DNA from: Reclinomonas americana ATCC 50394
Taxonomy: Eukaryota
Assembly (NCBI GenBank): GCA_048213135.1
Contig: PS015130.1
Location: 56,785 to 99,969, forward strand
Length of the DNA stretch: 43,185 nucleotides
Reading direction: 5' to 3'
Position 1 is the stretch's first letter, and the number at the start of each line of letters is the position of its first letter. Below the pieces are notes generated by a model. It was given only the letters and a program-made list of their open reading frames with translations, did no database searches and was not told the DNA's origin. This document shows, in pieces, positions 1,713 to 43,013 of the stretch. A program made the translations under genes and the position numbers.

Positions 1713-4700
1713 ATGTCGGAGCGCGCGGTGCGTGGTTCTGCGGGTCTACGTGTGTCTCAGAGAGACCACTCGCGCCTTGGTCTTACTCTGACTCCACGCG
1801 CAGCAATTCTCACTCACGGTGACTGCGCAATTCGGCACCGGCATGGTCACCGTGGTCTTGCACAACCTGGACGCTGAGTGTACGCTGCAACAGCTGGTCG
1901 ACACCATCACGGAACGCATCCGCGCCATCGTCAGCGATGCGACGCTCCAAGTCGAGTCGATCGACCATCTCGGCGATCTGCGTGAACTGAGCGACCACAC
2001 CCTCTTATCGCTGGGCGTCCACCACGGGGCTGAGTTGACGGCCGTGGTGATCGCTGCTCCAGCGTTGCGTCACAGTGGAAGCGAGTGAGTGGATTTCAGC
2101 GCTGCCTAACCACAGCCGTCTCGCAGCGAATATGTTGACAAGCAATCGCGTTCCTCCAGTCACGATTCTGCGCGCAGTGACGCAGGCGAGGATATGGGCA
2201 ACGGAAGAGAGCAGACAAAGCGCAGCGAGGTAGACTGTGTGTCTTGTCAGGCCGTGAAACGCGCCAACTGATGCCAACTGATGCTGACGATATTTTTTTA
2301 GCTCTCTCAGGAGTTGGTGGTTCGCGTCAAAATCCATGGACAGGCTGGTGAAGTGGAGGTGTGCGGACTGCAGCGTTCGTCCACTGCAGCGCAGTTTATC
2401 GCGGCCGCCACCGAGGCGTTGCGTGAGACGACTGGGAATCAGTCGTTGCACATTGTGGAGGTGCTGAAGCCCAAGGCCTTCTCAACAAGTGCCACCCTGC
2501 ACCGTTTCAACCCGGGCACCACGTTTGTGGTGAAAGTGGGCGAATCAACGTTGCGCAATGTTCCTTCCACAAGCTCGGGTGCGCATACTTTCTTCTCAAC
2601 CGACAATCCATCTCTGTCCGCAACAGCATCGCCGAGCAGCAGGCGAGGACTGGAGACACCTCCGAGTCCACTGCTGACACCGCTCATGCGGTAACTAGCA
2701 GCGCACGGTTTTCACACGGTGCATATGGGCGCAACTCTGCCAGTTTCACGTTCCAGGTTGGCGTCATCAACTATGGACGATTGTCGGCAGCGTTGGACAT
2801 TGTCACCGAGTTGCTGCGAATCCGACTGCAGCGACTCCTGCCCGACTTCTGTCGTGCATTCGACGTCAGAGTCACCGAGTGGTACAAGCCAGATCCGCCG
2901 CGTCGGTTGCGTTTTGTAGCTTGACAAAGAGAGGTGTGAAAAGGGGAGTATTGTCACCAACTAATATGTTATTCCCTGTGTGTATTGTGTCGCTAGGCTG
3001 CGGTCGCGCACTGGTCGAGTCATGGTTGTTGATGCTGCGGACAAGTTGGCGCTGCAGAAGTGGATGGATGAGTTTGAGGCCTCCGGACGCACATCGGCTC
3101 CCAGCTGCTCAACCTTCAGCTTCATGCTGGTGTGCTCCCTTCTCCTCCATGGTGGAGTCGACGTCGACGACAGCGATAGGCACGAAGTCCTCATGAGCGA
3201 TACTATCGAAGTGCGTTTCCATCCCCGCCGTCATGACAAGTGGAAAGAATGCAGCCCCACTGACAAGTGTATACTATCCGTGACACTTGCAGCGTGGGGT
3301 CATTGATCGCCTTCGTGGCTTCCGCAATGAGGTCGTGCATCGATCTGGCACACACAATTTGGCACCAGAGGTCAACCTTTGGCTGGGAACCGACGGGAGC
3401 AACGGACAGCTTGGTATGCTCTGCGACCTCCTCCATGTTGACGAACGAGTCAAGGCCACAGCGAGAGATCACTTGAAGCAAGTTCGGCATGGTTTGTGCA
3501 CCTGTTTGCGAATCGTTGACTATTTCATGGGCATGCCTGCTGAGTTCTAGTCGTCGTTTTCCTGCAGCCAATGTGCATATCAGCACTTTCGAGGAACACC
3601 TGCATCGACTGGCTGCACGAGAGCTCTCGTTCTATGAGCACGACGAGAGTGTGCGCAAGGACATGCAGATGTATGTGCCATTGCTGTGCTCACGTGAGCG
3701 TGACGTTGCGCCGAGGGAGAAGCTGCTGGACCTATTGACGGAAGCTGATGCTTTCCTCTCTGACACCAACACCACCCACCGTGTGCTGGTTCTGTTTGGC
3801 AACAGCGGTGCCGGCAAGACCACCACCATGTCGATGTTGGCCGAGCGAGCATGGCGACAGTGGCAGGAGGCAGGAGAGAGTCGACTGCGACGAGTGCCTG
3901 TGCGTGTGCCTCTTGGTGCTCTACGCAATGCCGACGAGAGATTGCTCGAGGAGGCGTTGGAGCGACTCTCACCCGAGTTGGGATTCAGTGAATCGGATGC
4001 GCGACGGTTGAAGGAGGAACCACTGCTGTTGTTACTGGACGGGTACGATGAGTTGTATCGTGGTGTGAATCTGTTTGTCAAGAACCGGTTGGATGCATCT
4101 GTGTGTCGCGACGTAAAGGTGATTATCACCTGCCGTGAGGATTACGCACTGACGGCATTGGGTGGAGCGGCACAGTATCGACGATGTTTTGCTCCCGTGG
4201 ACGCACGCGGACAGTTATGCATGCAGCAACTGATGGAGCGACACATTGCGCCGTTCAACAAGGAGCAGATTGAGGAGTATTTCGTGAGACTGGTGAGAGT
4301 GAGTGGTGATGATGACGATATCGGTGATGTGCGATGGTCAACTGCCGAGGAGTACATTCGTGCGCTGAAGAGTGTGCATGGGCTGGATGCACTGGTGTCG
4401 AATCCCTTCCTGCTTGCAGTGGTGGCTCGTGTGTTGCCGCAGTTGGTGGCGAGTGGTGTGCAGCGACCGACACGATGCGATGTGTTTGACCGATTCATTC
4501 GACAGTGGATTGTGAGGGAGCAAGAGAGGCAGATACGGCTCGGTGCGGATCGTGTTCCCAGTGAGGAGACGTGTCTGGCGTTCTGTGAGGGACTGGCACG
4601 GCTGATGCATGAGAGGAACGTGGTGCGCGTGGTGTCTGAAGAACGAGCTTTCGAAGAAGACATTGCCGAGTTTGGTGGTGCCCCGATCAGCTTCCGTCGA

Positions 4701-7415
4701 GTTGAAGAAGGACCATTTGACAAGTTCCTCGGCCGCAAGAACCAGCATGTGCGAGTGTGCTGTCCGATTGTGCGACGGTATGGGACGGATCAGTGGGGTT
4801 TCGTGCATCTGTCGTTACTGGAGCATTGTGTGGCACGGCATGTATTTGCATGGGAGACGTGGGATGAGGAGAGGCGATTGACGATTCAAGACGTGCAGCA
4901 GCACGTGCTGGCAGTGCGGCTGCTGAATGATCGACCGCCGCTAGTTGAGCAGATTGCCGAGGTGGTGCGACGGTCACCTCGATTGCAAACGAGACTGTGG
5001 GAGGTGATTAAGATGTCACGAGAGATGGATGAGGAGGAGCGAGTGGTGACGGCAGCAGCGAATGCAGCAACGGTGTTGTGTGTGGCACAAGTGCCGTTCA
5101 GCGGGCGAGATCTGTCGGGTGTGCGAGTGAGGGGTGCGGATTTGAGGGATGCGGTGATGCACAGGACGGTGTGGAGGGGAGCGGATATGCGCGGGGTGAA
5201 TATGTGCATGGCGTATGCGAGGGAGGCGGATTTCAGGGGGGCCGATGTGACGGGGATGAAGTGGCCGAGGAAGCCGATGGTGGGGCACACTGACTGCGTA
5301 ATGTCTGTCGCTGCCACTCCCGATGGTCAGCACATTATTAGCGGGAGTATGGACAAAACAGTGCGTGTGTGGTCTGTGACGAGCGGCCAAGAGGTGCGAC
5401 GGTTCGAGGGACATGTCGGAGGTGTGCAGTCTGTCACCGTCACTCCCGATGGACAACACATAGTGAGCGGAAGTGGGGACAAATCCGTTCGAGTGTGGTC
5501 ACTGATAAATGGACAAGAAATGCGACGGTTTGAGGGGCACATNNNNNNNNNNNNNNNNNNNNNNNNNNNNNNNNNNNNNNNNNNNNNNNNNNNNNNNNNN
5601 NNNNNNNNNNNNNNNNNNNNNNNNNNNNNNNNNNNNNNNNNNNNNNNNNNNNNNNNNNNNNNNNNNNNNNNNNNNNNNNNNNNNNNNNNNNNNNNNNNNN
5701 NNNNNNNNNNNNNNNNNNNNNNNNNNNNNNNNNNNNNNNNNNNNNNNNNNNNNNNNNNNNNNNNNNNNNNNNNNNNNNNNNNNNNNACCCACCCAGCGTG
5801 CCCCTCCAGTCGCCGCACTTCTTCTCCACGCTCAACGTACCACACGCGCACCGTCTCGTCATCACTCGCACTCACAATGTGCTGGCCATCAGGAGTGATG
5901 GCGACAGAATTCACTACATCAGTGTGTCCCTCCAACCGACGCACCTCTACACCGGTTGCCAGTGACCACACTCGCACCGTCATGTCCCAACACCCACTCA
6001 CGATATGCTGACCAGAGGGGGTGACGGCAACTGACCACACTTCCCGGGAGTGACCCTCCAACCGTCGCACTTCTTCACCAGTCGCCAGTGCCCACACCCG
6101 CACTGTCTTGTCCCAGCTGCCACTCACGATGTGCTGACCGTCGGGAGTGACGGCAACAGCGTTCACCCCACCGTTGTGTCCCTCCAACAGTCTCACTTCA
6201 TCTCCACTCACGAGCGACCACACCCGCACAGTCCTGTCCCCGCTCCCACTCACGATATGTTGACCAGCGGGGGTGACAGCGACAGAATACACACAGCTGG
6301 AGTGTCCCTCCAACCGTAGCAATTCGACTCCGCTCACAAGGGACCACACGCGCACCGTCTTGTCCCCACTGCCACTCACGACGTGCTGACCATCGAGAGT
6401 GACAGCGACAGACAGCACTCCTCCCNNNNNNNNNNNNNNNNNNNNGTGCTCCGTCGCCGTCACCCCCGATGGTCAGCACGTGGTGACTGGCAGTCAAGAC
6501 AAGACGGTGCGAATGTGGTCGGCGACGACTGGTGAAGAGTTGCTGCGATTGGTGGGACACTTTTTTGGAGTATGGTCTGTCGCTGTTACCCCCGATGGCC
6601 AGTACATCGTGAGTGGCGGTGATGACGAGACAGTGCGGTTGTGGTCAATCACGAGTGGAGAGGAGGTGCGACGGCTTAAGGGACACATTGGTGCGGTGCA
6701 CTCGATTGCCGTCTCTGCTGACAGCCAGCACATTATCAGCGGAAGTGAGGACAAGACAGTGCGAGTGTGGTCACTGACGAGTGGCGAGGAGGTACGACGG
6801 CTGGCGAGGCATACGGGAGAGGTGTACTCTGTCGTCGTCACTCCCGACGGTCAGCACGTCGTAAGCGGTAGTCAAGACAAGACCGTGCGAGTGTGGTGTC
6901 TGGCGCGTGTGGAGGAAGAAGTGCAACAGCTGGAGGGACACACTGGAGGGGTGAACTCGGTTGCCGTTAGTCCAGACGGTCACCACGTTGTGAGTGGGAG
7001 CGCAGACAAGACCGTACGTGTGTGGTCGCTGGTGAGTGGGAGAGAATTGCGACGGCTGGAGGGACACACCTGTCCAGTGCGGTCTGCCGTCGTCACTTCC
7101 GATGGTCAGCACATTATCAGTGGCAGTGACGACAAGACAGTGCGCATGTGGTCGCTGGCGACCGGTGGGGAGGTGCAAAGTGTTGGTGTCGGCTTTGTTG
7201 ATTTGCAAGCGGCAAGTGCGGACGACAGTCAATGCTTAGATGGACACACTGGTCTGGTGACCTCAGTCGCGGTCTCTCCAGACGGTTCGCACATCGTAAG
7301 TGGCAGCGCGGACATGACGGTGCGCGTCTGGTCGTGCCACCACCACCGTTCCGCTCTCTTGGACCGTGTTTTCGGTTCTTTCCTTCCTGACTTTGCCGAT
7401 TCTCTCGGAGAGTAG
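1713..7415 (+). CDS. NLR-like STAND protein: UBL-like, UBL-like, HEPN (DZIP3-type), NACHT NTPase, pentapeptide repeats, 14 WD40 repeats
   Basis: Phase-consistent exons 1713-1727, 1804-2063, 2127-2229, 2311-2690, 2744-2905, 2997-3210, 3293-3491, 3568-7415, all GT..AG. Walker A GNSGAGKT at 3798-3821, Walker B LLLLDGYDE near 4025-4052, IITCR, NPFLL, WGFVHLSLLEH, AAANAATVL followed by pentapeptides (about 5097-5265), then GH...WS repeats. HEPN RNEVVH at 3323-3340. The model requires re-orienting 5787-6425. The NACHT-WD40 part is the firmest and the UBL calls are weaker. Confidence 0.8.
5282..7335 (+). repeat. Array of high-identity 126-nt (42-aa) WD40 coding repeats; 5787-6425 is in minus orientation as assembled
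   Basis: Repeated GHxxxVxSVAVTPDGQHIVSGSxDKTVRVW units: 2 before the first gap, 5 in the inverted block, 7 after. Confidence 0.92.
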
Positions 7416-10138: not shown

Positions 10139-12415
10139 TCAAACGGCAGCCGCTGTCGCACCACCGTGCCCGGTCTCCATCACGCCTTGCACAATAGCCC
10201 TCCAGTCATGCAGCGACCGCAAGAAGTCAGGCATCAACACACGCAGTGCCGACGGGTTACTGGTCCGCATGTCGACAGTGGTGTGCATCAGGAGGAGGTT
10301 GTTCTTGGACGAGATGCCGGCACCGCCGCCACACATGTCGCGACCGAGGATGGAACCGCTGAGAACACGCTCAAACAGCGCCAGCCGATGAGCGGGATCC
10401 GTCGGCAGCGACGTGAGGAGCGTGCTGTAGACGTGCAACCGGAAAGTCTCCGGGTCGTACGTCACCAGCACGTTGGTCGGCTCTGGTGATTCGCTGTCGC
10501 GTGACTCGATGGCGATTACGCATGTGTAATTCTCGTCGCTGAGAGTGAGAGCGTGTGCGTGAGAGAGAAAGATAACAACTGTCAACAAGAAAAAATTGTG
10601 CACGCAACAAGGCAAGCTGACGGCCGTCCAGATCCTTGCCGAGCTCCATGAGATTGGTGACGGCGTTGCGGTAGGCACCCTGATTGGAACGCTGTGCCGA
10701 TTCCGCCGGTGTCGCCGACGGTCCCGCAGGTGCAGCCTGTCGCAGTCGCGTTGCGTGAGTGAGTGATCAGAGTGAGAGAGAGACACACATACAATAGTGA
10801 GCGGACGCAACTCGACGCGGGGGCGAGAGGCTCGTTTTCTTCGCGTCGGTGGCGGCTGTGGTTCCATTTCGCGCACGTGTGCCATTGGCGGACGATGCCT
10901 GCTGCTGCGGTGGGGACGATGCACGCTGTCTCGTGGCGGCGGACGGGGCGGATTTTCCACCGCGAGTGGGTGTAGTTGACGAGGTGCGAGTCAGATCGAC
11001 ACTCACTGAACAACACACTTTCTTTCAGCCAAACGAGACCGGAAGCACATTCTCTCGTGCTGCGACGCAACCAATAGGTGGCGGTATAGTGGAGTGAGTC
11101 AGGCTTGTCTCGTGCTCGGTGACGCTGTCGTCGGTCGGCGGCTCGACCGTCATGTGTGGCCGAATCGACTCGAGAGCCACCGGCGGCGAATGCAATCCGC
11201 TGTGCCGATCGTACGCATTCATCGTTGATTTCGATGGTGGTGGCGGCGGCAGCGGTGGCGGTGAAGGCCTTCGTGTGTGCACCGGTGAAACAACGGCGGG
11301 AGCGTGATCGACAGGAGCTGGGGGTGGTGACGCCGCCATTCGCTGCTGCTGCTGCCGTTGTTGCTGCACACGCGCTAGACTCTGCTCCAGTGCAGTCGGC
11401 GCGGAGAACGTGACCGTAGCAGGAGTGGGCGTGCTGAACACGGGCGCCGACGACGCAAAACTAGAACTCGGCTGTGGCGTAGCCGCCTGCCGCCGCGACT
11501 GTGGCGCTTGCCGCTGCGGTGACGACGGCGCCGATCCACCACCTCCCGACGAAATGAGACGTGACGAGGAGCGAGTCGTTGACGGTGGCCGCAGCTTCCG
11601 CGGCGAGCTGTACGCCACTCGCGACGAACCACCAGAACCTGTGGAATTCCACACACTGTGAGCGGGCAGCGGCGATTGATATACATGAGCAGCAAAAGAG
11701 CGCAACGGCTCAGCAGGCCATCGGCGAGCGACACCGACGAAGCCGACATGCGCGATGCGTTCGACATCGGCGACGACGGTCGACTGTTCCCCGGCGACGA
11801 CATCAACACCGACGACGACGACAAGTACGGCTGCTGCGACTGATACAGCTGCTGTCGCTGTGCGACTGCAGCAGTGGTCGGCGACGTCGGCAGCACAGAG
11901 AGCAGCTGCTTACGCGCCATGGTGCACGTGGCTCCATTGGAGATGCCATACTCGAACGCATGCCGATCGCCAATGAGTTCGTCGCCGAGAAACTTGAGGA
12001 TTTGCTCTGCGCGCGCGTGTGTATGTGAGAGAGCGGGATGAGCAACGACACAAGAGAGTGAGTGAGTGTGTGTGTGTGCGCGCGCGCCTTCTGGTGGCAC
12101 CCCAGAGAATCGATGCAAGTAACGCTTGATCTTGGAGACGCGCAAGTTCGCGACACTGCCGCGCATGAGCAACTTGAATCGCTGTCCATCGATCTCCGAG
12201 AGCACATTCAACACCTCGCGACCACTCTCACTCCCCTGTCAGAGAGAGAGAAAGAGAAGTGAGTTGTGTGCGCGCGCGCGAGAGTGTGTGTGAATCTGCA
12301 CTGACCAAGTCAGAGGTCTGATCGTCTGCAGTCGATGACCTGTGCGCGCGCCTAGGTGAGACAGACACACACTCACAGAGAGAGGCGAGAGAGAGAGGAG
12401 AACGCACCCAGGCAT
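10139..12415 (-). CDS. Protein with N-terminal ubiquitin-like domain, disordered linker and C-terminal CesT/YbjN-like chaperone-fold domain
   Basis: N-terminus VLSEIDGQRFKLLMRGSVANLRVSKIKRYLHRFSGVPPE|EQILKFLGDELIGDRHAFEYGISNGATCTM looks ubiquitin-like. C-terminus LMELGKDLDGRQLAF|DENYTCVIAI...VTYDPETFRLHVYSTLLTSLPTDP...LFERVLSG resembles the CesT-type L.FDEN..C pattern. The start at 12415 is tentative. Confidence 0.65.
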
Positions 12416-12497: not shown

Positions 12498-15385
<2,888 letters not shown>

Positions 15386-15563: not shown

Positions 15564-16641
15564 CTACTGCTGCTGCTGCTGCTGCTGCGGTGGCGGCGGC
15601 GGCGGTGCTTGTGCTGACGGTGAAGCGGCGGGGGCGGGGGCGGGAGCGGGAGCGTGCGCAGTTTCCTTTGGCTTGACAAAGCGAGAGGTGGCCAGGTGGA
15701 AGGCAACTGCGAGTGCAAACGCACGGGGTGAAACACGGGGAGGTTGCGCTGGCAGCGCAGGAGGCAGCACGCAACGAGCAGTGGCAACGCCAATGGCTGC
15801 ACCACCGACAACTTGTGCCACCGTGGGAGAGTCGGTCTTGTACGCAATCGCACCTCCAGCAGCCGCGCCCAGCAGCGCACCTGACCACACACCGCATGAG
15901 TGAAGACAAGACACACACACACCGGCCACACTGCCGACGCACCAATGTCACACAACCGGTCCGCACGCTTCTGCAGAGCATTGTTGCGCCTGTGCACAGC
16001 GAGGTCAGCCTCTGCACAAGCATCCAGTCCTCACAATCACGCAACAGCCGATAGGCGCGATCGTACGCGCCCTCCTCCGTCATGCCCTGCATGCGTGTGT
16101 ACATAACAGCCGTCAGCACAAAAGGCAATGAGAGAAAAGAGAGAGAGAGAGAGAGAGAGGAGAGATGGGGAGAGAACCTTGAACTTGTACGCCATCATTG
16201 GCGCAGTGATGGCCGTGCTGTAGGCCAGTGCACCAATGGCCGAGCACTGACCGGCGGTGCCCACCATCTGCCACCACTGTGTGTCGTCATCACGGCGGTA
16301 GAACGCGAGTGGAATGCCAATCAGCAGGCCAATCAGAGAGCCTGCATGCATGCAAGGCAGAGGAGGAAGAGGAGAAAGAAGAGGAGGAGGGGGTTGTTAT
16401 GCAAAAAGGCGGGCGATCGCATCTCTCTCGCCTGCTCTCTCATGTGGCCACTCACCACCCTGAATGCCTTTGCGCACCACGTGGACGGCCGTCTGTGTGT
16501 GAGAGAGGAGGAGGAGGAGGAGGTGGGTGAGGTGACTTGCATGCTCTCTCTGCCTTTGTGGAACACACACGCGCGTGCGCGCACCTCCAGGTACGGGTGC
16601 GGGATGTTGGCCAACTTGTCAAGCTCTTCCATGTTTGCCAT
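15564..16641 (-). CDS. DUF1757-like small membrane protein, paralog A
   Basis: Spliced IPHPYLE|TAVHVVRKGIQG|GSLIGLLIGIP...YKFK|GMTEEGAYDRAYRL|RNNALQKRAD followed by glycine-zipper helices. The DRxYRLRxNxxQxRxD motif is recalled as DUF1757-type. Confidence 0.6.
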
Positions 16642-16781: not shown

Positions 16782-17792
16782 TTACTGCGGCTTGGGTGCG
16801 GAAACAGCAGGCGCCGGTGGTTGCGACGGTGACGAAGGAGGTGTTGCTGCAGTTGTCGAGCTCGACTCCTCGCTCTTTTGCAAGAACGGTGTGGTGACCA
16901 CGTGGAAGATCACTGCAAACCAAAACAGAACAAAAGCAACTGTTGATGAGTACTCGCTGCTGTGCGGTGCATCATACAAAGCACGGGGGGCTGGCTACTG
17001 ACCGCCACTGGCGAGGCCAATGGCTCCCAATTCGGCGACAGCACTCAGCACGGAGACACCGGTGCGCGCGGCAACCACTCCGCCAACTGCAGCGCCAAGG
17101 ATCATTCCTGCAGAAGGCGAGTGAGAGCCAAACAAACGAAAAAGAAGGCGAGATGGAGCACACAAAGAGCACACCGAGCGAAGAGACATGGTCGACACGG
17201 TTTTGCAGAGCGTTGTTTCGCCTAGACAATAGACAGGAATGTGTAAGCGACCATGCAACAAGTGCCGGCAGTGGTGGTGCATACTCAACAGGCGATAGGC
17301 ACGATCGTACGCGCCCTCCTCTGTCATATCCTATAATACACCGCAGCACAGCAAACACATGAGATGCGAGCAACGCGCGCTCACTGGCACGCCCACTTGA
17401 ACCTTGAGTTTGTAGGCCAGCATCGGTGCTGCCACCAAGAGAGTGAACCACAGCGTTCCGTTCAGAGAGCAGCGGCCGACAGTGGAGACGATTTGTGAGA
17501 GAGTGCGCTCCTTGCGACGAAAGAGTGCCCACGGAATGCCGCCGAGGAACCCGAGGAGGGAGCCTTGTCAATGCGAAAAAGTGAGAGTGAGAGAGAGAGA
17601 CGCGAATGGGGAGGAGTGAGACTCGCCTGCTTGCAAGCCCTTCTTGTACACATGCACCGAGGTCTATGTGTGCGTGGGAGAGAGTGAGTGACAGTTGTGG
17701 CGCAGGTTGCATCACTGGAAGAGACGAGCCTCCCAGTACGGGTGTGGGATGTCAGCCAGCTTGTCGAGGTCTTCATCGCTCATCGGCGCCAT
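16782..17792 (-). CDS. DUF1757-like small membrane protein, paralog B (tandem duplicate)
   Basis: MAPMSDEDLDKLADIPHPYWE|TSVHVYKKGLQA|GSLLGFLGGIP...YKLK|DMTEEGAYDRAYRL|RNNALQNRVD, with the same intron positions as paralog A. Confidence 0.6.
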
Positions 17793-19810: not shown

Positions 19811-22800
19811 ATGGCCACCACGCGCCCTGTGTGGCTGCCTCTCATTGCGTATGCTCTGCTTGGTGAGACTGCAGGCGGTTATTGGCACTCACACACACTC
19901 ACATCTTTTGCTGACTGTGTGTGTGTGCGTGTGTGTGTGCGTGCGTGTACGTGTGTGTGTGCCTGTGCATCGAGCAGTGTGTCTGGTGTACGCACCTAGT
20001 GGCGCACTCGCCCAGTCGTTTCGTCTCACTAGCGTCGCTTACGATGCACCATCAATCGCCGCGGGCGACCTGATTGGTTTCATTGTTGCTGTCGCACCCA
20101 CGGACGACGCCGACTGGACCTACGCCATCGGCAACTGCGTGCCCTTCTACGTGGACAGCACCTCGTCGCCACCCTCTCTGCGCGTGAGTCGTGCGGGTGA
20201 GAGTCGCGATGCACTCAGCGTGACCATTGTGGGCACCTACCGCTCCTCGGCCGTGGTGTCGCTGTCGTTTGTGATTCGTGTTCGTCCGCCTCTGTATGTT
20301 CTCAATGGGGCCGTCGACTACGCGAATGCGTCAGCTGCCGCCACACTGGTCACTGTGAGAGCGAGCTCCGGTCAAGTGCTGTCGGTGAGTGCAATGTGCG
20401 CGGCAGCAGCACTCGCAGCGGTTTCGCCCTGATGCTGACTGTGGTGTTTGCTGTTGCGCAGTCGGTGGCCATGAGCGGCACTCCTGGATACACTGCACTG
20501 GCGGTGCATCCGACCACCGGCACACTCTATACGATGCGTAACAGTGCGGCAAGTGCAGCCGCACTGCTGACCGTGGATGCAACGGTGCGTAGAGTAAATA
20601 TTTTTTCTGCAGTGAGTCGGTGCTCATGTGTTGTGGCCGCGGCTACAGTCGGGCACCACTGCCTTGGTGGGGTCTACCACCGGCATTCGTTCGTGGACTG
20701 GTCTGGCATTCCGCTCCGATGGTCAGCTGTACGGTTGGGCCGAGTATAACACGAGCAACGTGGCGGTGGATCGCCTGTACAGGATCGCGCTGCCCGGCAT
20801 GACTCTCACCGCCCTCTCACCGACACCGTGTCTGCAATACTGCGTCAGTGTGGCCATCTACTTTGATGCTAATGATGTTGCGTGAGTATCGCAGCACTGC
20901 GCCTTGTCTGTCTCTCCTGCTCATCATCACCATGACCACCACCGCTCGACAGAATCTCTACCGCAAATCCGGTATCGTGCTGATGCAGATGAATTCGGCG
21001 ACTGGCGTCGATGTCGGCTCTGCGCGCACGCTGGTCAGCGATCCCGGCTCGGATCCACTGGCCATTGTCGGTATCGACGGAGTGCTGTATGTCGGCCGTG
21101 GCGACGTCAACAATCAAGTCGTCGGCTCGCTGTACAGTGTGAACGAGTCCACGCTGGAGGTCAGCTTGACCGGCTCAGGAGCGTACGGCCGGTTCAGTGG
21201 AATGGCCTTTGGCGTCCCCGCTCCACTGGCATGCACCGCCGGTCTTGCTTGTCCTGGCGCGTGCGTACCCGATCCCAGCAACATTCAAGAGCCATTCATC
21301 TCCACTGTGAGCATGGTGCCGGCGGTGCCGACGTTGAACCAACCGCTCACTCTCGTGGTGATCGGCGGCAATTTTACGCCGTGCTCCGCTGTTTCACTGG
21401 AAGCCGCTGACGCGCCATGCAGCGGGTCGAACGCACCGAGTGTGTCCGCGCTCTCTGTGACTCGCACGCGGTGTAACGGCTGCTACTGTGCCGGCTTGGA
21501 GATCTCGCTGCTGCTCACCAGCAATGCCTCGTTGCACGTGTGCATCCGTCGCTCCGACGCCGCCTCGTACACCACCTCGGCCAAGTCCGCAGCGCCTCTC
21601 GTTGTTGGCAGCCGTTGCGTGCTGGCGCGCGCTGTGTGTTCCTACGTGGGAGATCAGCAATTGAGAGCTCACGCGTGTGTGCATTGCAGAAATTCGAACC
21701 GGTACTGTGGATTCTGCTTCGTTGCCGTCGTTTTCCAGCAGCGGCCTCGCGTCCAGCTCTGGTGGAACGCGCTCATGGACTTTTCCGATCACGTTTACGC
21801 CGCCATTTGGTGAGTGCCTGTGAGACTGTGCGTGTGCGGTATCGTTTGCTCACCGATTCCCCCGCCACCAGCTGGCACGCCGGCTGTCATGCTGGCCATC
21901 GCGGGTGTCACATTCGGCACCCCGCACTCGCGAATTTATTGCTCCTCCGAGGTTTGCTCGTGTTGTCATTCTACGACATTGTCGCATCTACTCACCTGCC
22001 ATGCGTGTGCGTCTGCCAAGGCCGTGCGGGCTGGACAGGTTATCTGCAAGTGCACGACGCATGGGTGAGTGTGTGTGGGTGCCTGTCTGACGACGCTTTT
22101 GTCAAGGAGCCTTGAACGCTCACGTCGTGGAATGCTGTCGCAGTGCCTCCGTCATCACTGCCCTGCACATTGCCTATTTGGCGCATTACACCAACAAGAC
22201 GAGTGAGACTCGCAACAATACGGGTACTCTGTTGTATTCGTCGCTGGAACGTCGCGACTGGTGCGTGTGTGGCTGCGACTCCACGAGTACTTCTCTGTCA
22301 CTCACTCACGAGAGAACGCCCAGGTGGAGTGGACCCACCACCGACGACGAGCTGGACATGCGCGTCATCACTGTGACCGAGCCACTGCTGGGGTATGAGA
22401 AGGGCCAGGAGGCGCCGTCATTAGTGTTTGGCGTGCGACACGCTCACCTGCTGCCGGAGACGGCCAACGCGTTCACCAGTCGCATGACATTTTCCAACTG
22501 GCAGTACTTTAGACACCAGTTGCGTGCCGCGTACTGCTCGGTCTGTGTGCGCGCTCATATTGTGTCCACTCATGAGGCCGTCGGCACGCAGAGTGTCAGC
22601 CGTCGACGACTGTCGCCTCAGTATGCTGGCGTTTTCGTGGATGGCATACCCACGTCCACCCACAAGTGGTAGCGGTATTGGCATGCAGTCTGGCGTGGGG
22701 CGCCTGCTGGCCGACGGTGCATGCAACACGCATGCCTTCGCGCCGGTTTTTGCCAGTCCTCCGCAAGTCGCAGCGTTCGCCCGCGGCTGGCAGTTTACGC

Positions 22801-32977: not shown

Positions 32978-34846
32978 TCATTTTGCTGCCATGTATGCGG
33001 TGATTCGGGTGTCCCGGGTGAATCGGTATCTCTCGGGAGTCTGCTTGACGATCAGCGGCCCGTGTTCTGCATGTGACACTACATTACACACACACACACA
33101 CACATGTATGTTGAGCAACGCCGATCTCGTGAGACGAGCACGCTTGTAGCGAGACGCAACAGCTGACATCGTAGGGCGTCACGCCGAATATTTTGACCAG
33201 AGCAGTGACGATTGAAGATAATGGTTGATTCTGGCGATGCGGGGCTGATGGGTCAGAACACAGGAGAGAACCAACAGAAATGAATGGCACGACTCACCGC
33301 GCGCATGTGAAACGTGAGCACGTCGGCAGCGGCGGGATCGGCAGGCACATTTGACTGCACCTCCAACGCGACGTGAACTGTGACATCGGCGGAGCCGATG
33401 GGCTCTGGTTGCGGTGCCACGGCGGCGACCGTGGGCGGCGCGCCTGTCGGCTTGCCTCGTACATCCACCAGGTTTTCCACTTCCATGTCCAGCGACTCTG
33501 GCGTCTCGACAGCACCCACAACCGCCCCGTCAAACAGTACTGCAGAACGAGAGTTGAGAAAACGAGCAGGGCAGGAGAGGCCAAGTTTGAATGGCACGCA
33601 CACTTGGCAGAGGCAGGGTCCAAAGCGAGTGCCGCGCACACCGTCGGCAACATGGACACCAATGGTCTTCTCAGTGGGCACTCGAGTTTCACTGGCGCCC
33701 CCGACGAGCCGCGGAACTGCAGCAGGATACGTGGGCCCTCCTGCTGCGCAGCGACCGGCGCCGGCGCCGGGGTTGGTGTCGGCGTCGGTGTCGGTGCCGG
33801 CGTCGGGGCGGGTCGCGGTGCTTGCAATACTTGCGGTGCTGGTGGTGTCGGTGGTGCTGGTGGTGCTGGTGGCGCAGTTCGTATGGGTGCCGGTGGTATC
33901 GCGTGCTTCTGCAGGGGTGTTGGTGCACTGGCACTGGACTCGGGTTTCACAGGCGGTGCTGATTTGGTGGTGGTGGTGGTGGTTGTCGTAGCCGTGATGG
34001 CGCTGACGGGAGGCACACTGCGCCCCGCTGATATTATCATCTGCCGGCTGAAGTTGGTCGACGGCAGCACAGTCAGTGTCAACGGCGTGATCTCCTCCAC
34101 CGGCCCCATTGCACGCTGTTGCTTCATGATGCGCGCGCGTTCCTTCATCACACTAGTCGCCCACTCACCAGTGAGCAAAGCACACTGGGCCAAACAACTC
34201 TCCTTCTCTCTCTCTCTTTCACACGCAACGTCAAGGAACTGGAGGCTGGCGACGGCTGCAATCTGCCCAGTGCAAACTCGAAAAAATGAGACGGCAGCGA
34301 ACCACCCGAGCACCACATCTCTATGCCGCACCTCTTGTTGTACCGAGTCGCATTGTAGTTTGCCTCGGCGACCTCTGCCGACACGAGACGATCGGCCTTC
34401 TCACCATAATCACCACCACCATCATCATCATCATCATTGTCGGCATCGCCCGACGACGACAATCCACTGCTAGTGATCTCTTGCACATCGGGTGTCGTAT
34501 TCAACTGCATGTTGAGTATCGCCTTGCGCTGTCGCTCCTCCTGCACGTAACGTGAGAGCGAGTGTGTGAATGAGCGAGAATGCGTGTATGTGTAGCATCG
34601 CAACTCGCTCACGAGCTGACACGCGCTGCACGGGTGCCATTATGTCACGCGCCAGTGGACTAGCAGCGTCGTCGTCGTCGTCTGTTATGTCCACCACACG
34701 CACTGCATGCAACTTGCGATGTTGGCCACCTCGACAACTTCCGACGTGTTATTGCACTCACCAACGACATGCTGCCGCCCAGAGGGCCTCTTCATGGAGA
34801 ACATGTCCTCCTCCTCCTCTTCCTCTTCTTCGTCGGCGCGAGGCAT
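32978..34846 (-). CDS. Rad60/Esc2/NFATC2IP-like protein with tandem SUMO-like domains
   Basis: Acidic and SIM-like N-terminus (VVDITDDDD), Pro-rich linker, then ILLQFRG...VKLEC...PL...LFDGAVVGAVETPESLDMEVENLVDV (SUMO-like FDG...TP.SLDME), and a second degenerate domain ending QTPERYRF...ITAY. Confidence 0.65.
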
Positions 34847-34918: not shown

Positions 34919-36742
34919 ATGTTTTGGCTGAGCATTCTGTGCGCCCTGCTCGTCGCGTGTGGCGTGCTGGCGCTGATCGACCAGTGGACGGTGTGCATTA
35001 TTCACACTCGCACACACGCATGCATCTCCTCACCTGCACACACACACACACACAGCGTCGCAAGTCTGTGGAGAATGCATCGGCGACGGCCTCTGCTTCC
35101 GCAGCCAAGCCCACGCACGATCAAAAGGCGTTCCGTCGCTTCCGGCTGACGTACCTGGTGGCGTTCTTCTTGGCCTTTGGTTCGCTCCCTGTCGCGCGAT
35201 ATGCAGCAGTGAGCTTCCCGCCATTTAATCGCCATATGCATTCGCCAGGTGCCGACTGGCTGCAGGGTCCCTACGTGTATCAGCTGTACTCGGCGTATGG
35301 CTTCTCGCGCGGCACCATTGGTCTGCTCTTTATCGCCGGCTTTGGCTCGAGCTTCCTGTTTGGCACCGTGTTTGGATCGCTGGTCGATGTCTTGTTGCGT
35401 TGTTGCATGTCGACTTCTCCGGCCCACGCTGCGTCGTGGCATTGACACGCTTGGTGGGGCAGCGGGCGACGGGCAGGCGCGTTGCTGTACTGTGCGCTGT
35501 ATGCAGTCGCGTCGTTGACCAAGCACGTCAAGCTGTTCCCGGTGCTGCTGATCGGACGAGTGCTGGCCGGTGTCGCCACCTCGCTCCTCTACAGCGCTTT
35601 CGATTCGTGGATGGTGGCCGAGCACCACCAGCGCAAGTTCTCCACCGAGTCGTTGAGTAGCACGTTTGCGGTCGCCAACATCGGCAACTCGTTGGTGGCC
35701 ATCACCGCGGGCGTCGTCGCGTATTTTGTGCAGGCGTCATTCGGTGTGTCGCCCACCTTCTCTTCCATTCGTCTTGGTGAGCGCGCCCCACTGAGTGTGC
35801 GCGTGCAGGTCTGGTGGCGCCATTCGACGTGGCGGCCGTGCTCCTGGTGTTGTGTGCCGTGGTGGTGGCCATGTACTGGAACGAGAACTACGGGCAGGCC
35901 TCGCACAGCAGTCTCCAGCTCATTCGTCGCGCCCTGGTCTTGTCGCGCGCTGGTACACAAAGCACATACTCCACTTTTTTCCGATCGTCTTTCCCCTCCC
36001 TCTTACGTGTGCGACGAAAAATCACAGATTTCCGCATCTGGTGCCTGGTGGTGGCCGACGGACTCTTCCAGGCCTCCATGTTCACCTTTGTGTTCATGTG
36101 GACACCGGCGCTGGAGGAGTTGGAGCCGGAGATCCCGCATGGTGTCGTCTTCTCGACGTTTATGGTGGCCTGCATGCTCGGCTCCATGATCTTCAAGTTG
36201 CTGCGCTTGCCCGTTGGTCTCGGATTCTCGGCGGTCCTTGCCGTGGCGTGCCTGTGCATGATTGTGTCGACGGTCACCACGGTTTGTGTTGCTCCGAATA
36301 AGTGTGTGCGCGCGCGTTGCTGGACAACTCTGACCCACTGCACGCAGAGTGCCGTCGTCATGTACGCGGCCTTCCTCGGTTTCGAGGTGTGCGTCGGTGC
36401 ATTCTGGCCGTCGGTCGGCGTGTTGCGCAGTCGCCTGTACCCAGACGAGTGCCGCTCGGCGTTTATCAACATCTCCCGTTTGCTCATCAATGGCTTGGTG
36501 GTGTCCCTGCTGTGCAATGTTGCGCGGTGGCCACGAGAATGTCTTTGTTGTTGTCGTTGTTGTCTGCTGACTCGTGTGCTCGTGTCAGATTGGTGCACTG
36601 CAGACGCACGTGGTGTTCCTTCTCGGGAGCGTCTCGCTCGGTGTCTCCCTGGCTGCCTCGCTCGTGCTGCTCGGACGTGGCGACGAGGCCAAAGAGTCGC
36701 ATGCACCACCCGTCAAGGCCAACGACAAGAGCACCAAAGTAG
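34919..36742 (+). CDS. MFS transporter, MFSD5/MOT2 (molybdate-anion transporter) family
   Basis: GADWLQGPYVYQLYSAYGF, LFIAGFGSS, GSLVDVFGRR, GRVLAGVATSLLYSAFDSWMVAEH, APFD, WNENYG, SMFTFVFMWTP, PHGVVFSTFMVACMLGS, FEVCVGAFWP. Seven GT..AG introns. Confidence 0.9.
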
Positions 36743-36779: not shown

Positions 36780-38881
36780 TTACCGGAATGCAGTCATGGT
36801 GCGTGTCGACAGTTCGCTGAGAATGTCGTGCGACACCTGACTGCACCAGGTGAGAGCTGTCAACAGAAAAACTGTGAGTTGAACGACAGAGAGAGAGTGA
36901 GGCGTCGACAATGGCACACCAAATTGTCTCAGTCGCGGGAGCATGGCCACCATTTTCCGCACACCATCTGGAGACGGACATGAGAGGCGACAACAACAAT
37001 AGTGAAGAGAGGGGCAGGCTGGCACTCACCATTGGTCACGTGGTGATTCCACGAAAAGTTCACCCTGTGACACCCAGTATGATGATCAGAAAAGGAATTG
37101 TGTTGTGCTGCTGACGAATTGCACTCACATGCGTAGCATTGAGCAGCGGCTTGCAACCTCGAGGAAACCAGCTTCGCCAACCTGCTTGCAACCCTCCATG
37201 ATCAACTCTTGCAGTCGCGGACAACTCGCCGCCAGCACCCCACAGAACAGATCCGTCACCTGCCCGCCAGCGGAAAAATGAAAAAAGCGACGAGCACGCC
37301 ACGCAACGCACACGCAGCACGCACCGGACACCAACTGACGTCCAGCATGGTGAGCTGCGTGCACGCTTCGACCACCTGACACAGACTCTCGTCGGTGAGA
37401 TCGTCGCAGCGACCGAGGTCGAGGTGCGTCAGATGCGTCAGGTGCTTCATGTACGCCGCCCCCACATCGGTAAGGTGGGGTGCCACACGCAGTGCGAGCC
37501 ACGTGAGTTCCGTACACCGCACGCTGAGCATCATGATCAACGTGTCTGTCGTGCATTGGGGTCGACGTCACCGAGTGAGGCACACTGCAAGCAGCACCAA
37601 CAAAAGGCAGACGGCACAACTCACCGTCCACACACTCGCACCAGGAGAGATCGAGCTCGGTGAGCTTGATAAGCTCCTGTGGAATCTCTGCAATGGCGTC
37701 GGTGTCGATCATGTCGCACTCGGGGAGGTACAGACGCGTCAAGCACGGACACTTCTTGCAGAGGGTGTTGATCGCCGTGTTGGTGACCTGCATGCAGCTT
37801 TTTTTTGGTACAAAACCACTCAGCGAGCGACTGCGAGTGCATGTTCTGCACACCTGACAGCCACGCAAGCTCAGCGTGCGCAGCGTCGCACCACTGCTGG
37901 ACACCAGCAGGCGAATGCACAGAGTGCTGACGGCGCGCACGCCATCCACCTTGACCTCACGCAGCGCGGTGAATCGCTGAAACATATCCGCAAACGCAGC
38001 CTCCTCGTCCATCCGTGTGCAAAACGACAAGTCAAGCGACTGCAGCTGCGCGTGTAATCTCTCATTGTTGGCCAGGCTCCACACGGGCGCGCACTCCAGT
38101 TGTGAACACTGCAGACAACACATCGTGGTGAGTATGCCACGAGCAGCAACAGCAGCAGCAGGATTCGCGCTTCATCCGCAACTTGCACCAGCGACAGGCT
38201 CGTCAGCGACGCCGGCGCCGATCGGCAAAAAAGCGAAGCGCCCGCATCGCTCACATGAGAGCAGGCCACCATTTCCAGCGTGGTCAGCGACGAGCACACA
38301 CGCGCCACAGTGGCCACAAACAGGTCATTGACAGTCTCGTCGCACCCACGCAGTCGGAGTACCGTCAGTGAGCCACCCATGGTTGTCGCCAGCATGCGCA
38401 GCGGTGCATCCGGGGCCGGGAAGGCCACACGCAAGTGGTGCAACTGCTTGCAGCTCTCGGCAACAACACCGAACACCTCGGCCGACGCCGCCACCTCGCC
38501 CGACAGCCACAGCTCCTCCAGTCCCTGCTCGCCGAGCTCGCTCACCAGTCGTTCCACTGCCATATACGCAGAACAGCGGTGAGGGAGTGAACCAGTGGAC
38601 TCTTGTTTGAGACGGACGCAACATGCAGAACGACTTGTCTCGGTCACCTATCGCACACAGCAGTGAGTGAATGTGATGATCAGACAACTGAATCACGATG
38701 TGCAAACGCAACTGTCGGTGGTAGGCGAAGCGACATCACACCTCCACTGCCGCACCGTTCGCGCACATGCTCCAGCACGTCCTCATCGATCTCGCAGCAG
38801 CACGTCAGGTTCGGCTCGGTGGAATCATTGGCCTCCACACACAGATCGACACGCTGCACAGAGCATTGTGTGTATGGATGC

Positions 38882-38913
<32 letters not shown>

Positions 38914-39187: not shown

Positions 39188-41123
39188 TCAGCACCATGTC
39201 GGATTGTGCTCCCAGTTGTACGCGTCGCACCACGTCTGCAATTGTGGATTGTGCAGGCCAAAAAGCGCAAAGGTCTCTTGCAAAAAGTCCTCATCAAGAC
39301 AGGGAGCCTGGCGCACGCAGTCGCACTGGTGAGCGTGTGGCACACACACACAATGCGGACAACGACAGCGGCACAACAACACGCACTCTTGCCATGTTCT
39401 GGATGCTAAAGTCGGGAATGATGGGTGTGTGCTCCATCTGGATAAACGACGACAGCACCGACGGCGATCGAATGCACTTGTCGTAGTAGCCGGGTGCCAC
39501 CGTGTAGTGCTGCAGCCGCTTGTTCATGCCAGCCACAGCAGTGCTGAATGTGGATGCGCGGGTACCGATAAAAACCTGCCAGTGGCGATGAGTGGACACG
39601 CAGCATGTCACCCTCCCTGCTCATTTTCAGGTCACGCAACCTCCGCCCGCGATGCCACCAGCATGTCGATCCACGCTGCATCCAGTTTGCCATCGGGGCC
39701 ACGACCCTTGGCGTCTTTGTTCCACACCACCATATCGCCAAGCATACTCTGCGCCTTTTCCAACACCGACGGCTGATCGGTGGCCACGTACACCTTGACC
39801 TTGTCCTCGTCCCACTTGTGGAAGCGGATGAGGCTCTCCACGCACTCGAAAAACACCTTGACCTGGTCCTCCTCGCCCTTGGGGAAGTACAGATCGTTGT
39901 CGCCGATGCGTCCACGACGAATGTGGATGGCCACCTGTCGTCGGCATCGCAGGTGTGAGCGAGTGTGGAGAACGAGAGGAGATGGTGAGGGGCCCACCTT
40001 GCAGCCGTCGGAGCCACACGATTTCCGCTCCACTTCGTCGGCAACCTCTTTCCAGTGTGTATTCGGTTGGAAGAACCACTGCCAGATGTGATTGAAGCCG
40101 TAGCCAATGTGCTTGTGCGTCCACTCACGCATGCTGGGGTTCAACAGCACCTGCATTGCGTGTGTGTGCGTGATGAGTTGATTGGCACAGCGCAGTGGAG
40201 GAAAGAAAGAGAGGGAGAGACGCAACAACATTCATCGGCAGCGCTCCTGACGGTTTCAGCATCCATACCGTGTCGTCGCCGGGCACTGCCTGACGGAAGA
40301 ACACCTGCATGCACAACATTATCGGTTGAGCTCAACTCCCGATGCCTGCCGCCGACGACGAGCGAGTGGAACACAAAACCTTCGGATCATCGAGGTTCGC
40401 CTTGGTGTAGTCGCTGCACATCGCATCGTGGTACTCGCCTGTTGACACGCCGAATGAGTCCAGAGAGGGGAGACGAAAGAAGAGAAGGGGGGGAGTTCGA
40501 GACGCAACACCAGGACGAGTGATGCCTCCTCCAATACGGCGCCGTGTGCAGTACCGCCTTGGCTTGATCTCTGTACGGCTGCGGCATGTGCTCGANNNNN
40601 NNNNNNNNNNNNNNNNNNNNNNNNNNNNNNNNNNNNNNNNNNNNNNNNNNNNNNNNNNNNNNNNNNNNNNNNNNNNNNNNNNNNNNNNNNNNNNNNNNNN
40701 NNNNNNNNNNNNNNNNNNCTTCGGCAGTGTCTGCGCATCGATCGACGAGTCCATCATACTATCGTGCAACTGGCGATAGGCAAACAGTGTCTCCTTGGCT
40801 GGCGCCACCAAGTCCTTGTCGCACACCGCCGACTGCGGCGGTGCAAACTTGGGTCGCGTCTGTCGCGCACACTCATCCTTCCAACTGACACGACGCGGTC
40901 TGGCAAACACGGGTGAGGGCAGGCTGGTCAGGTTCTGGAAGACCAGCACCGCTGCAAGCGAGTGTGCGTGCGCGTGGGCGAGGGCGTGAGTGTGCGAGGA
41001 GGGAGGGGCGGCATGTGTGACACTTGCGCGCACACACGCACCAAATACTGCAAATGCCACAAAGAAGAGGAGGAATGCTCGTCCACGAGGGGATATGTTG
41101 CGCCACCAGGATGGCGCGCTCAT
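39188..41123 (-). CDS. Type II membrane GT-B fucosyltransferase-like protein (alpha-1,2/alpha-1,6/O-FucT superfamily); contains an assembly gap
   Basis: N-terminal anchor AFLLFFVAFAVF|AVLVF, motif I VAIHIRRG, motif II VYVATD, motif III AWIDMLVASRAE|VFIGTRASTFS. Confidence 0.8.
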
Positions 41124-41170: not shown

Positions 41171-43013
41171 TCACATTGGTGGTCGCGGGCGAATGTGGAA
41201 CGGAGGTGCGGAGAGGGATGGGGCTGACAATGGCACTGGACCGCTGTCGCCACCACCGCCAACTCCACCACCGCGACCTCCTCGCCCGCCGCCACGTCCA
41301 CCGCGACGTCCTCCACCACGACGTCCACCGCGACCACTGCCGTCGTCTCCTCCTGCTGCCGCGCCTGCAGACGATGCTGGAAGTGGTGGTGGCGGTGCTC
41401 CTGCTGCGGCCAGCATCGGAGGTGGGCCTGATCCACCAGCTGGAGGGCCGTGATCATCGCCACCACCACGACGTCCACGTCGACCGCCGCCCCGGCCGCC
41501 ACGGCCACCGCGACCCCCTCCTCGTCCACCACGTGCCTCACCCTCGCCCCACGGTGCTGCGGCAGGAATACCAGCGGCACCTGCCGGCGGGGGACCTGCA
41601 GAAGGGGGAGGAGGTGGCGCAGACGCAGCTGTGACCGTCGTTGTCGCTGCCGGCGGACCATCGTCGCCTCGGCGCTTCCGACCGCCGCGCCCACCACCTC
41701 GTTCCCCTCGCTCTCCCCTTTCTCCTCCTCCTCCTCGTCGCTTTCCGCTCTTGCCACCACGCTCTTTTTTCGGCGGGCGACCACCAACCAGCGGCTCACC
41801 AGCGGCAGCCGCGGCCGACATGGGGCGCACCGGCAACATTGGTGTTGTGGACGCAACACCACTGCCGGATGCCGACTGTGGTCGGCGCATAATCTGCACG
41901 CCGGCCGCCATCGTGGGCATGGTCATGGAGGCGACTGCTTGCATGTCGGCAGCAAGCCGCGCGGCACGCTGGCCGGCACGCTTCGCACGCTGATCCAATC
42001 GCTTCACCTCTGCGCCGTGTGAGTGCTTGCCGTGCACACTGCTGCGTGCAACCAGCGTGTGACGTACCCTTGTAGAGTGCCTTGGCGTCCTCGCCCTTCA
42101 GACCGCGTGCTGCAATCTCTTTCATGGCACGCTCGCGAGCCTCTCGCGCCTCCACCACCCGCTGGTCGGCGCGACGCGCGGCCTTGTCCGCCTGCGTGAC
42201 AAACAAACCTGTGGTGAGACGACGCAGCGCAGAGGCGACAGCCAAACACATAAGACGAGACCTTGTTCTGCTTGGCAGACGCCTGCTGCTGACGACGCGC
42301 GACTTTGCGGAGAATCTTCAGCTCCGCCGACTTGGACGGATGCTTGCCGACACCACGAGTGACGCGCTTCTCCTGTGGGAAGAACTCGTCAACGGGGGCA
42401 ATCGCGGTGCGAGAAAACAAACACGTGCACCGACCTTTGCAGCAAGGTACTCGCGCACCAGCAACGTGGTCCGCTCCGCCGGACCCTTGATACCGGCAGC
42501 CGCTGCGAGACACAAGGAGTGGTGAGCGTGTGTGTGTGGGAAGACGACGATACAAGCAAGGCACACGAACGCACCATTTTCGGCCTCCTGCTGCCGCAAC
42601 TGCACCTCGGCGCTCGGCGTCTGCGGTGGCGGTCGGCACAGCGACTCCACGAAAACCAAGTAGTCGTCGTCTGGCGACACACAGTGAGGAGAGCGAGACA
42701 GCGAGAGAGAGACAGCGAGACTAAACGCGCAACTCTCCAACACCGAGATCGGGGCAGCCTCAGCAGGGACCGCCACCGGCGCCGCAATGCCATTGACAAG
42801 CCGACGACCGGGAATGCGTTGAAAGGGCGCGTACTCGACCACAGCACGACTCTCCAGTCCTTCTCTCACACACACAGACAGACAACAATGAGCGGGGTGC
42901 TGAATGTGCGAATCACATAAAGGAGACTTGCCTTTGCTGTCAATGAATGCGTGGCCGTCAAATGCATGCGCAAAGTCCACAGCAGCGCGTGCGCGGTCGA
43001 AGCCAAGGTACGC
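41171..43013 (-). CDS. UPF3: Nonsense-mediated decay factor UPF3, 5'-partial, with RGG-rich C-terminus
   Basis: AYLGF...AVDFAHAFDGHAFIDSK|GLESRAVVEYAPFQRIP, DDYLVFVESL and TTLLVREYL match the Smg4/UPF3 domain. Upstream exons are outside the window. Confidence 0.85.

Follow-up and report, generated by a model that had tools for sequence, protein, structure and literature searches.

The window analysed here, a stretch of 43,185 nucleotides of nuclear DNA from Reclinomonas americana ATCC 50394 (contig PS015130.1), carries protein-coding genes on both strands, has a G+C content of about 58% and contains 988 N spread over five gaps. Its introns are short, and their 5′ splice sites (donors) fall into an ordinary class and a shifted class, the latter beginning GTTGCGT, as if one T had been inserted into the ordinary motif; this shifted class (S class) is the subject of the present analysis. 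The genes comprise a NACHT-WD40 gene (3477-7373), a PRP4-type kinase gene (12936-15385, plus strand), six tandem GT2 glycosyltransferase genes (18400-31837, plus), a gene for a G-patch protein (31841-32902, plus), an MFS_5 transporter gene (34919-36745, plus), and, on the minus strand, genes for an LRR protein (39120-37000), a fucosyltransferase-like protein (40560-39190) and UPF3 (43020-41700). Two tandem paralogues, 1 and 2 (15565-17791, minus), encode small Gly/Ala-rich orphan proteins that have intron positions in common, and for this pair no homologue and no Pfam family was found. No tRNA genes occur in the window.

An exon-by-exon reading of the genes yielded 66 curated donors, 27 of the shifted class and 39 of the ordinary one. 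A preliminary description of this DNA had listed 21 donors of the shifted kind, and each of them carries the motif on the strand assigned to it: GTTGCG at 18 positions, GTTGAG at two (13595 and 17289) and GTTACG at one (14090). Six further members, all on the minus strand, were added at 15775, 38622, 38712, 39640, 40226 and 40508. When the count is confined to genes annotated end to end (the kinase, MFS_5, UPF3, orphan paralogue 2, the fucosyltransferase-like gene, the LRR gene and one GT2 copy), the shifted class makes up 16 of 40 donors. Together with its share of the curated set (27/66) and of the junctions anchored by homology without regard to the donor (4/8, see below), this figure agrees with the earlier claim that the class is a major one.

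The ordinary donors (n = 39) have G at −1 in 37 cases, G at +3 in 24, G at +5 in 33, T at +6 in 25 and G at +7 in 20, and take any base at +4 (A 10, C 15, G 2, T 12). They include three intron positions common to five GT2 copies, where introns that have diverged with indels separate conserved exon blocks. The class can be written G/GT(G/A)NGT(G), where the slash marks the cut; it depends on the last exon G, is lax at +3, +4 and +6, and, when G stands at −1, accepts nearly any GT, for example G/GTTCTC, G/GTTCAA and G/GTCTCG. The shifted donors (n = 27) all start with GT, have T at +3 and G at +6 without exception, G at +4 in 26 cases, C at +5 in 25, T at +7 in 21 and G at +8 in 11, and their letters are far stricter than those of the ordinary class. 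This second class is H/GTTGCGT(G), with H standing for A, C or T, and it is used where the exon end is not G.

The base that precedes the cut separates the two classes sharply. In the shifted class it is T in 11 cases, A in eight, C in five and G in three, and among the 21 donors of the preliminary description T in eight, A in seven, C in four and G in two, so that the exon does end mostly in A, C or T, as had been stated. G stands at −1 in 3/27 shifted versus 37/39 ordinary donors (p = 1.3e-12) and, with paralogues collapsed, in 3/26 versus 24/26 (p = 3.6e-9). The −1 position of the shifted class resembles the ordinary −2 (A 15, T 10, G 8, C 6) and not the ordinary −1. Slid by one base, the shifted class becomes the best form of the ordinary class, G/GTGCGTG, with the +1 G changed to T and the cut one base upstream. 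Its letters are the ordinary ones found one place later, which upholds the view of it as the ordinary donor with one more T and with the conserved G moved from +5 to +6, and its two variants correspond to ordinary forms in the way proposed, GTTGAG to GTGAGT and GTTACG to GTACGT. Comparative studies such as that of Carmel and colleagues (2004) reportedly found that the exonic and intronic parts of a donor compensate for each other as on a seesaw. The donors described here are similar in that those without G at −1 have the stronger intron-side match, but differ in that this strong intron side has an extra base.

The placement of the junctions is most exact in the PRP4 kinase and MFS_5 genes, where four members of the class (14090, 14446, 14807 and 35394, of the 27) restore a conserved protein with no residue added or missing. 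Single exons of the kinase were searched against solved structures, with chain 6cnh_A of human PRPF4B as the reference. Exon 13996-14088 aligns with residues 6-21 of this chain, exon 14162-14444 with residues 25-116 (query residues 3-94, the third residue lying on 25 and hence the first on 23), exon 14527-14805 with residues 118-206, and exon 14882-15178 with residues 208-286; at 14090, 14446 and 14807 exactly one residue of 6cnh_A is absent per junction, corresponding to the split codon. All frame-keeping GT-AG pairs within ±45 nt of each junction were then enumerated, and the resulting proteins were scored with hidden Markov models (HMMs) of homologues. For the first kinase intron of this set, c/GTTACGC...CAG at 14090..14159 (plus, phase 1), no other frame-keeping GT-AG pair exists in that range; the second, a/GTTGCGTG...CAG at 14446..14525 (plus, phase 2), is the top of 18 pairs by 9.9 bits, and the third, again a/GTTGCGTG...CAG, at 14807..14879 (plus, phase 1), is the top of 12 pairs by 16.5 bits. 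In MFS_5, the intron t/GTTGCGTT...CAG at 35394..35462 (plus, phase 2) is the top of eight pairs by 11.7 bits, and a gap of 23 residues (69 nt) appears at 35394 in tblastn alignments of the MFS_5 homologues P0097/P0098. The kinase junctions FEPM-E-MSL and RPPEV-I-LG, which had been proposed from conserved protein sequence, are therefore borne out by the alignment of the exons to 6cnh_A, and the transporter junction DV-F-GRR by the tblastn gap. All four of these introns end in CAG.

The same procedure anchored four ordinary junctions on the plus strand. In the kinase, g/GTTTGTG (15179..15241) is the top of nine pairs by 4.4 bits; in MFS_5, g/GTTCGCT (35180..35248), which also coincides with a 23-residue tblastn gap, is the top of 12 pairs by 14.2 bits, g/GTACACA (35953..36027) is the top of four pairs by 18.4 bits, and g/GTGTGTC (35744..35808) supplies the donor of the best pair, its acceptor at 35781 (38 nt) or 35808 (65 nt) being uncertain. 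Four of the eight junctions anchored blindly to the donor thus belong to the shifted class, although the pattern GTT[GA][CA]G accounts for just 87 of the 6130 GT sites of the window (1.4%; binomial p = 2.7e-6). A plain H/GTGCGT or H/GTGAGT is found at none of the eight, and elsewhere such donors occur only as unproven alternatives.

It might be supposed that GTTGCG is an artefact of tracing open frames by eye and that the true donors are nearby GT (or GC) sites. Four or five of the listed sites do have workable alternatives, and three naive gene-finder passes that lacked signal models often picked other GTs; these de novo passes (a candidate scan, a Viterbi pass with GT/AG only and a crude acceptor filter) are too noisy for a census and preferred, for instance, 14829 to the homology-proven 14807. 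The supposition is extremely improbable in view of the four junctions that are the best or the only GT-AG solution under the homologue HMMs, those of the kinase matching the human protein residue for residue, and the abundance and position of the motif also speak against it. GTTGCGT occurs 28 times on the two strands, about twice the frequency in shuffled sequence (12.95 ± 3.55 expected from 100 dinucleotide shuffles, with a maximum of 25 and none reaching 28), and the curated donors account for 19 of the 28 heptamers, all at places where they restore the frame on the coding strand.

A further argument against misplacement comes from a frame test that is blind to the donor motif. For each of 6042 usable GT sites, this test required an open coding frame upstream, a restored frame, a stop in the read-through, and a YAG with a branch-like motif 45-130 nt downstream. 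GTTGCG tops all GT hexamers, with 9 of 66 sites passing versus 127 of 6042 overall (p = 8.1e-6); with tighter requirements the numbers are 7/66 versus 69/6042, and with the tightest GTTGCG retains 3/66 and ranks second. Because it ranks first among the hexamers in this test, GTTGCG is enriched over background GT sites, as the preliminary description had expected of a true donor. When the test is split by the −1 base, 0 of 41 G/GTG[AC]GT sites score at the first setting, several of them being real by paralogy, and in this form it is too insensitive to judge the existence of H/GTGAGT donors. The observation of a shifted donor class is confirmed by these results, and the interpretation first placed upon it is partly supported, in that the class is both real and large.

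Judged by sequence, both classes consist of genuine U2-type GT-AG introns and belong to a single nuclear genome. Their branch-like motifs, 3′ ends and intron sizes are alike and both occupy the same genes, which points to a single spliceosome. A YAG with an upstream YTNAY, a motif of low information, lies 45-130 nt downstream of 24 of the 27 shifted donors; none was found for 11071, and for 33160 it lies at 120 nt. U12-type introns, too, are a second class that shares genes with the first, and they have a long near-invariant 5′ motif and require no G before the cut. The shifted class shares these three properties with them, but its motif is not RTATCCTT and its branch regions are of the YTNAY kind, like those of ordinary introns. 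An assignment to the U12 type was rejected, RTATCCTT being present in 0 of 27 donors and the branch regions being of the CTGAC, CTCAC or CTAAC types, with no TCCTTAAC.

The common start of these introns could also have been inherited from a mobile (introner-like) intron, or the extra T could be a systematic assembly error. The uniformity of the first seven to eight bases, the similar sizes (63-90 nt) and the draft state of the assembly, with its 988 N, would suit such origins. A mobile family was nevertheless rejected from alignments of the intron bodies, with paralogous pairs excluded, in which the mean local score is 7.96 within the class, 7.91 between the classes and 8.03 within the ordinary class (348, 1035 and 635 pairs, respectively); moreover, the 3′ ends do not carry an inverted copy of the start. 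Assembly error was rejected as well, since an intronic T insertion could not depend on the last base of the exon, and the exons are free of frame-breaking T insertions, as seen in an 844-codon open reading frame (ORF) and in the intact kinase exons. Either origin is, in our opinion, very unlikely.

As for the way in which the shifted donors are recognized, the reading that we favour from the sequence, with no better than even confidence, is that they are read by the same U1 as the ordinary donors, either with the pairing displaced by one base or with a U bulged out. In the shifted register, GTTGCGT would be read as G/GTGCGTG one base off, so that the first G of the intron would take the U1 slot that otherwise receives the final G of the exon, the +2 U would remain unpaired and positions +3 to +7 (UGCGU) would occupy the ordinary +2 to +6 slots; in the alternative geometry, a U at +2/+3 would be bulged. 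Counted by hand against the 5′ end of human U1 (AUACUUACCUG, as printed in PMC4856993), GUUGCGU forms two Watson-Crick pairs and one wobble in the canonical register, and four Watson-Crick pairs and one or two wobbles in the shifted or bulged register. One pair close to the junction would be lost in this way and all downstream positions would then have to pair, a demand that may explain why GCGT is near-invariant. The cut would stay in front of the GU, being fixed later by U6, U5 and Prp8, and the motif would persist only at exons that cannot have G as their last base.

Human splice sites provide the closest parallels. Shifted-register sites go back to Roca and Krainer (2009, Nat Struct Mol Biol 16:176), as described in PMC4856993, and the bulge +2/+3 registers to Roca et al. 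(2012, Genes Dev 26:1098), as described in PMC4856993 and PMC9311317; according to Tan et al. (2016, PMC4856993) and the review PMC9311317, it is established that U1 pairs with some rare human sites in the shifted register and with others in the bulged (+2/+3) one. The donors of R. americana are like the human shifted-register sites in that GU is followed by an extra pyrimidine, the consensus would fit U1 moved by one position and cleavage would stay at the GU. They are unlike them in that the human sites are described there as rare and as having an AAGU core that matches canonical U1, whereas the present class makes up about 40% of the curated donors, has a strict GCGU and goes together with a missing G at −1, its U1 pairing being modelled on human U1. 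With the human bulge sites they have in common a GUU... start, in which one U would lie outside the U1 helix, and the move of the conserved G from +5 to +6.

If the register were normal and a bulge were formed, +1 G and +2 U would pair with C8 and A7 of U1, the extra U at +3 (or +2) would loop out and GCGU would pair as the ordinary +3 to +6. By the same hand count this geometry equals the shifted register in number of pairs, U6 could pair one base further in, and, in the account of Tan et al. (2016, PMC4856993), human sites that depart from the canonical register more often use the +2/+3 bulge. However, a bulge should keep or even raise the preference for G at −1, and this G is depleted here (3/27, versus a genomic G frequency of 0.294 and 37/39 in the ordinary class). 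The shift is favoured over the bulge for this reason, as a bulge would gain from a G at −1, while after a one-base shift this slot would already be taken by the first G of the intron. The bulge also gives no account of why a plain H/GTGCGT is not the usual answer to an absent −1 G, and on its own we regard it as rather unlikely.

Several points weigh against recognition by an ordinary U1 in either geometry. All pairings are derived from human U1, which may not be that of the host, and the C at +5, present in 25 of 27 donors, pairs with nothing in canonical U1 in any register. GTTAAGT, the donor form expected for canonical U1, has no copy in the window, and the commonest −1 base of the shifted class is T, not A. 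Possible H/GTGAGT or H/GTGCGT donors exist at 2085, 13612, 37128 and 39386, so that a G filling the "−1 slot" may be dispensable. A shift is not distinguishable from a bulge here, the argument from −1 being weak with the ordinary −2 near background. All counts, finally, come from this window of about 43 kb; frame continuity is the sole basis for 19 of the 27 shifted donors; and their share of about 40% may be too high because GTTGCG is more easily spotted in curation than weak ordinary donors are.

With the C at +5 unexplained and GTTAAGT absent, two features that are inexplicable by a canonical U1, a changed U1 end or a second U1-like RNA is a possible alternative. According to this explanation, the class would depend on a dedicated or co-evolved small nuclear RNA (snRNA), either a second U1-like (or U11-like) RNA able to pair with every one of the seven bases of GUUGCGU, or a changed U1; in the latter version, a single U1 would have ...ACGCACC... 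in place of ...ACUUACC... and GTTGCGT would be fully paired. Seven near-invariant positions with no need on the exon side, as in U12-type 5′ sites, are what such an RNA would produce, and human cells have variant U1 genes, according to PMC3561869 and PMC10870369. On the other hand, the Rfam scan of the window gave no match at the gathering score and, even at E ≤ 1, no snRNA family in the window, just three weak unrelated matches (snoZ178, mir-460 and isrG). In addition, GTTGAG and GTTACG follow the variation of the ordinary donors, which a single reader for both classes would predict, and the branch and 3′ signals are equal in the two classes. The U1 5′ end (canonical ACUUACCUG) is, to our knowledge, almost universally conserved, which we also count against a specialized RNA; such an RNA seems to us possible, if improbable. 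The same idea can be cast as two parallel readers of 5′ splice sites, an ordinary U1 that needs G/GU and a U1-like RNA or changed U1 (ACGCAAC or ACGCACC) with which the whole of GUUGCGU pairs. We think this unlikely; if true, the handover to U6 would be one base off, and a third intron type would exist beside the U2 and U12 types.

Whichever way the donors are read, among well-studied eukaryotes we know of a conserved 5′ splice-site G at +5 and, as out-of-register sites, of rare human cases found singly. Text searches of the literature, which do not reach the logos in figures and supplements, did not find the motif described as a donor consensus, just as part of primer or construct sequences. 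On what could be seen, the novelty lies in a noncanonical-register donor, rare in humans, that appears here as a major, strictly defined class tied to the last base of the exon. A large and strict class of this kind would be a natural experiment on the extent to which U1 binding can be separated from the selection of the cleavage site, on how U6 handles an extra base and on whether the near-universal 5′ end of U1 can change. From a practical point of view, gene finders trained on GTRAGT will mis-annotate genomes that have shifted donors.

The remaining members of the class differ in how closely they are fixed. The preliminary description held that all 21 of its donors were needed to restore reading frames; this stands to the base for 14090, 14446, 14807 and 35394, and does not stand in the same way for 2064, 13595, 20877 and 36519, all on the plus strand, which have rival donors. 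Taken over the whole class, 22 of the 27 donors have no GT[AG]NGT within −30 to +36 nt that might be the true donor in their place. In the PRP4 kinase gene, t/GTTGCGC at 13917..13923 (plus) is used by the two top-scoring pairs, with the acceptor at 13995 or 14016, and the candidate a/GTTGAGT at 13595..13601 (plus), in the N-terminal region, is frame-consistent, with 13616 and 13612 scoring within 5 bits. In MFS_5, the candidate t/GTTGCGC at 36519..36525 (plus), before the last helix, brings the C-terminal hydrophobic segment back into frame, and the alternative 36527/36629 scores equally.

Gene A, which belongs to no family, contains two plus-strand candidates placed by frame only: c/GTTGCGT at 2064..2070, with an a/GTGAGTG rival 21 nt downstream at 2085 and in the same phase, and g/GTTGCGT at 2906..2912, which passes the donor-blind frame test. 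Frame continuity likewise defines three plus-strand donors of gene G, which encodes a secreted-looking protein. The first, t/GTTGCGT at 20877..20883, passes the donor-blind test and has c/GTGAGTA 5 nt downstream (20882); for c/GTTGCGT at 21614..21620 and a/GTTGCGT at 22519..22525 frame continuity is the only evidence. A canonical-looking GTGAGT is found 5-21 nt inside three shifted-class introns on the plus strand (13612, 2085 and 20882) and could serve as an alternative donor.

On the minus strand, gene C has four members, all placed by frame continuity: t/GTTGCGT at 10602..10608, before a CesT-like C-terminal exon, which was also recovered by a signal-poor gene finder, and then, with no other evidence, a/GTTGCGT at 10805..10811, g/GTTGCGT at 11065..11071, for which a regular expression finds no YTNAY branch motif, and c/GTTGCGC at 11700..11706. 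In the orphan pair, t/GTTGCGT at 16039..16045 (minus, paralogue 2) and t/GTTGAGT at 17283..17289 (minus, paralogue 1) are paralogous and occupy the same intron position, and the junction AYRL-RNNALQ is kept in both proteins. A new candidate in paralogue 2, c/GTTGCGT at 15769..15775 (minus), would start a 69-nt in-frame intron with intron-like signals and a pyrimidine fraction of 0.66; the read-through is open too, and splicing there is uncertain. The candidate t/GTTGCGT at 33154..33160 (minus), in gene I, is weak and was placed by frame only.

In the LRR gene (Pfam LRR), a/GTTGCGG at 38176..38182 (minus, phase 0) gives the junction LTSLSLVQ-CSQL, which fits the LxxLxLxxCxxL repeat, and two new minus-strand donors come from frame continuity, t/GTTGCGT at 38616..38622, which follows a micro-exon of 25 nt, and a/GTTGCGT at 38706..38712, which passes the donor-blind test. 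The micro-exon itself (38623-38647, minus), as delimited by frame continuity only, is flanked by two shifted-class introns (donors 38712 and 38622). The fucosyltransferase-like gene has three new donors on the minus strand. One of them, g/GTTGCGT at 39634..39640 (phase 0), passes the donor-blind test and yields the junction LVASRAE-VFIGTRASTFS; the Pfam search of the exons of this gene gave just a sub-threshold NodZ/FUT8 similarity (E = 0.015), and the donor at 39640 is therefore not anchored. The others, t/GTTGCGT at 40220..40226 and t/GTTGCGT at 40502..40508, follow from frame continuity, and the next 70 nt have pyrimidine fractions of 0.70 and 0.73, respectively. In UPF3, a/GTTGCGC at 42727..42733 (minus, phase 1) joins ...PISVLE to N-DDYLVFVESL; the upstream exon matches Pfam Smg4_UPF3, and the junction, which lies in a variable region, is not anchored to the base.

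Four candidate GC-AG introns, all on the minus strand and all with G at −1, were seen at 42931, 17626, 17729 and 39392. In UPF3, aaag/GCAAGTC at 42931 would give the junction DSKG-LESRAVVEYAP, and in orphan paralogue 1 the candidates are gcag/GCGAGTC (17626) and ggag/GCTCGTC (17729), where paralogue 2 has GT donors. The last of them, catg/GCAAGAG at 39392, competes with a/GTGCGTG at 39386.

Some other features of the locus can be mentioned. Among 5.8 billion proteins, none is more than 67% identical to the exon of the PRP4 kinase, and the 80 metagenome loci related to this kinase are likewise at most 67% identical; the collections searched thus contain no close relative, and the protein result suggests that an annotated proteome of the organism is not on record. 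In the NACHT-WD40 gene, ORFs on the plus strand (3477-5540 and 6468-7373) stand on either side of WD40 repeats encoded on the minus strand at 5804-6229, between runs of N at 5543-5786 and 6426-6445, and this piece between the gaps (5543-6445) has probably been scaffolded in the wrong orientation. Five of the six genes of the GT2 array are close copies that have in common three ordinary introns, a mini-exon of 16 nt and an upstream exon rich in Cys, and an ORF from this array has its nearest Atlas clusters among GT2 families of bacteria and giant viruses. Microsatellites in the form of long (CA)n/(GT)n and (CT)n tracts are present at the window end (43110-43185), in intergenic DNA and within introns.

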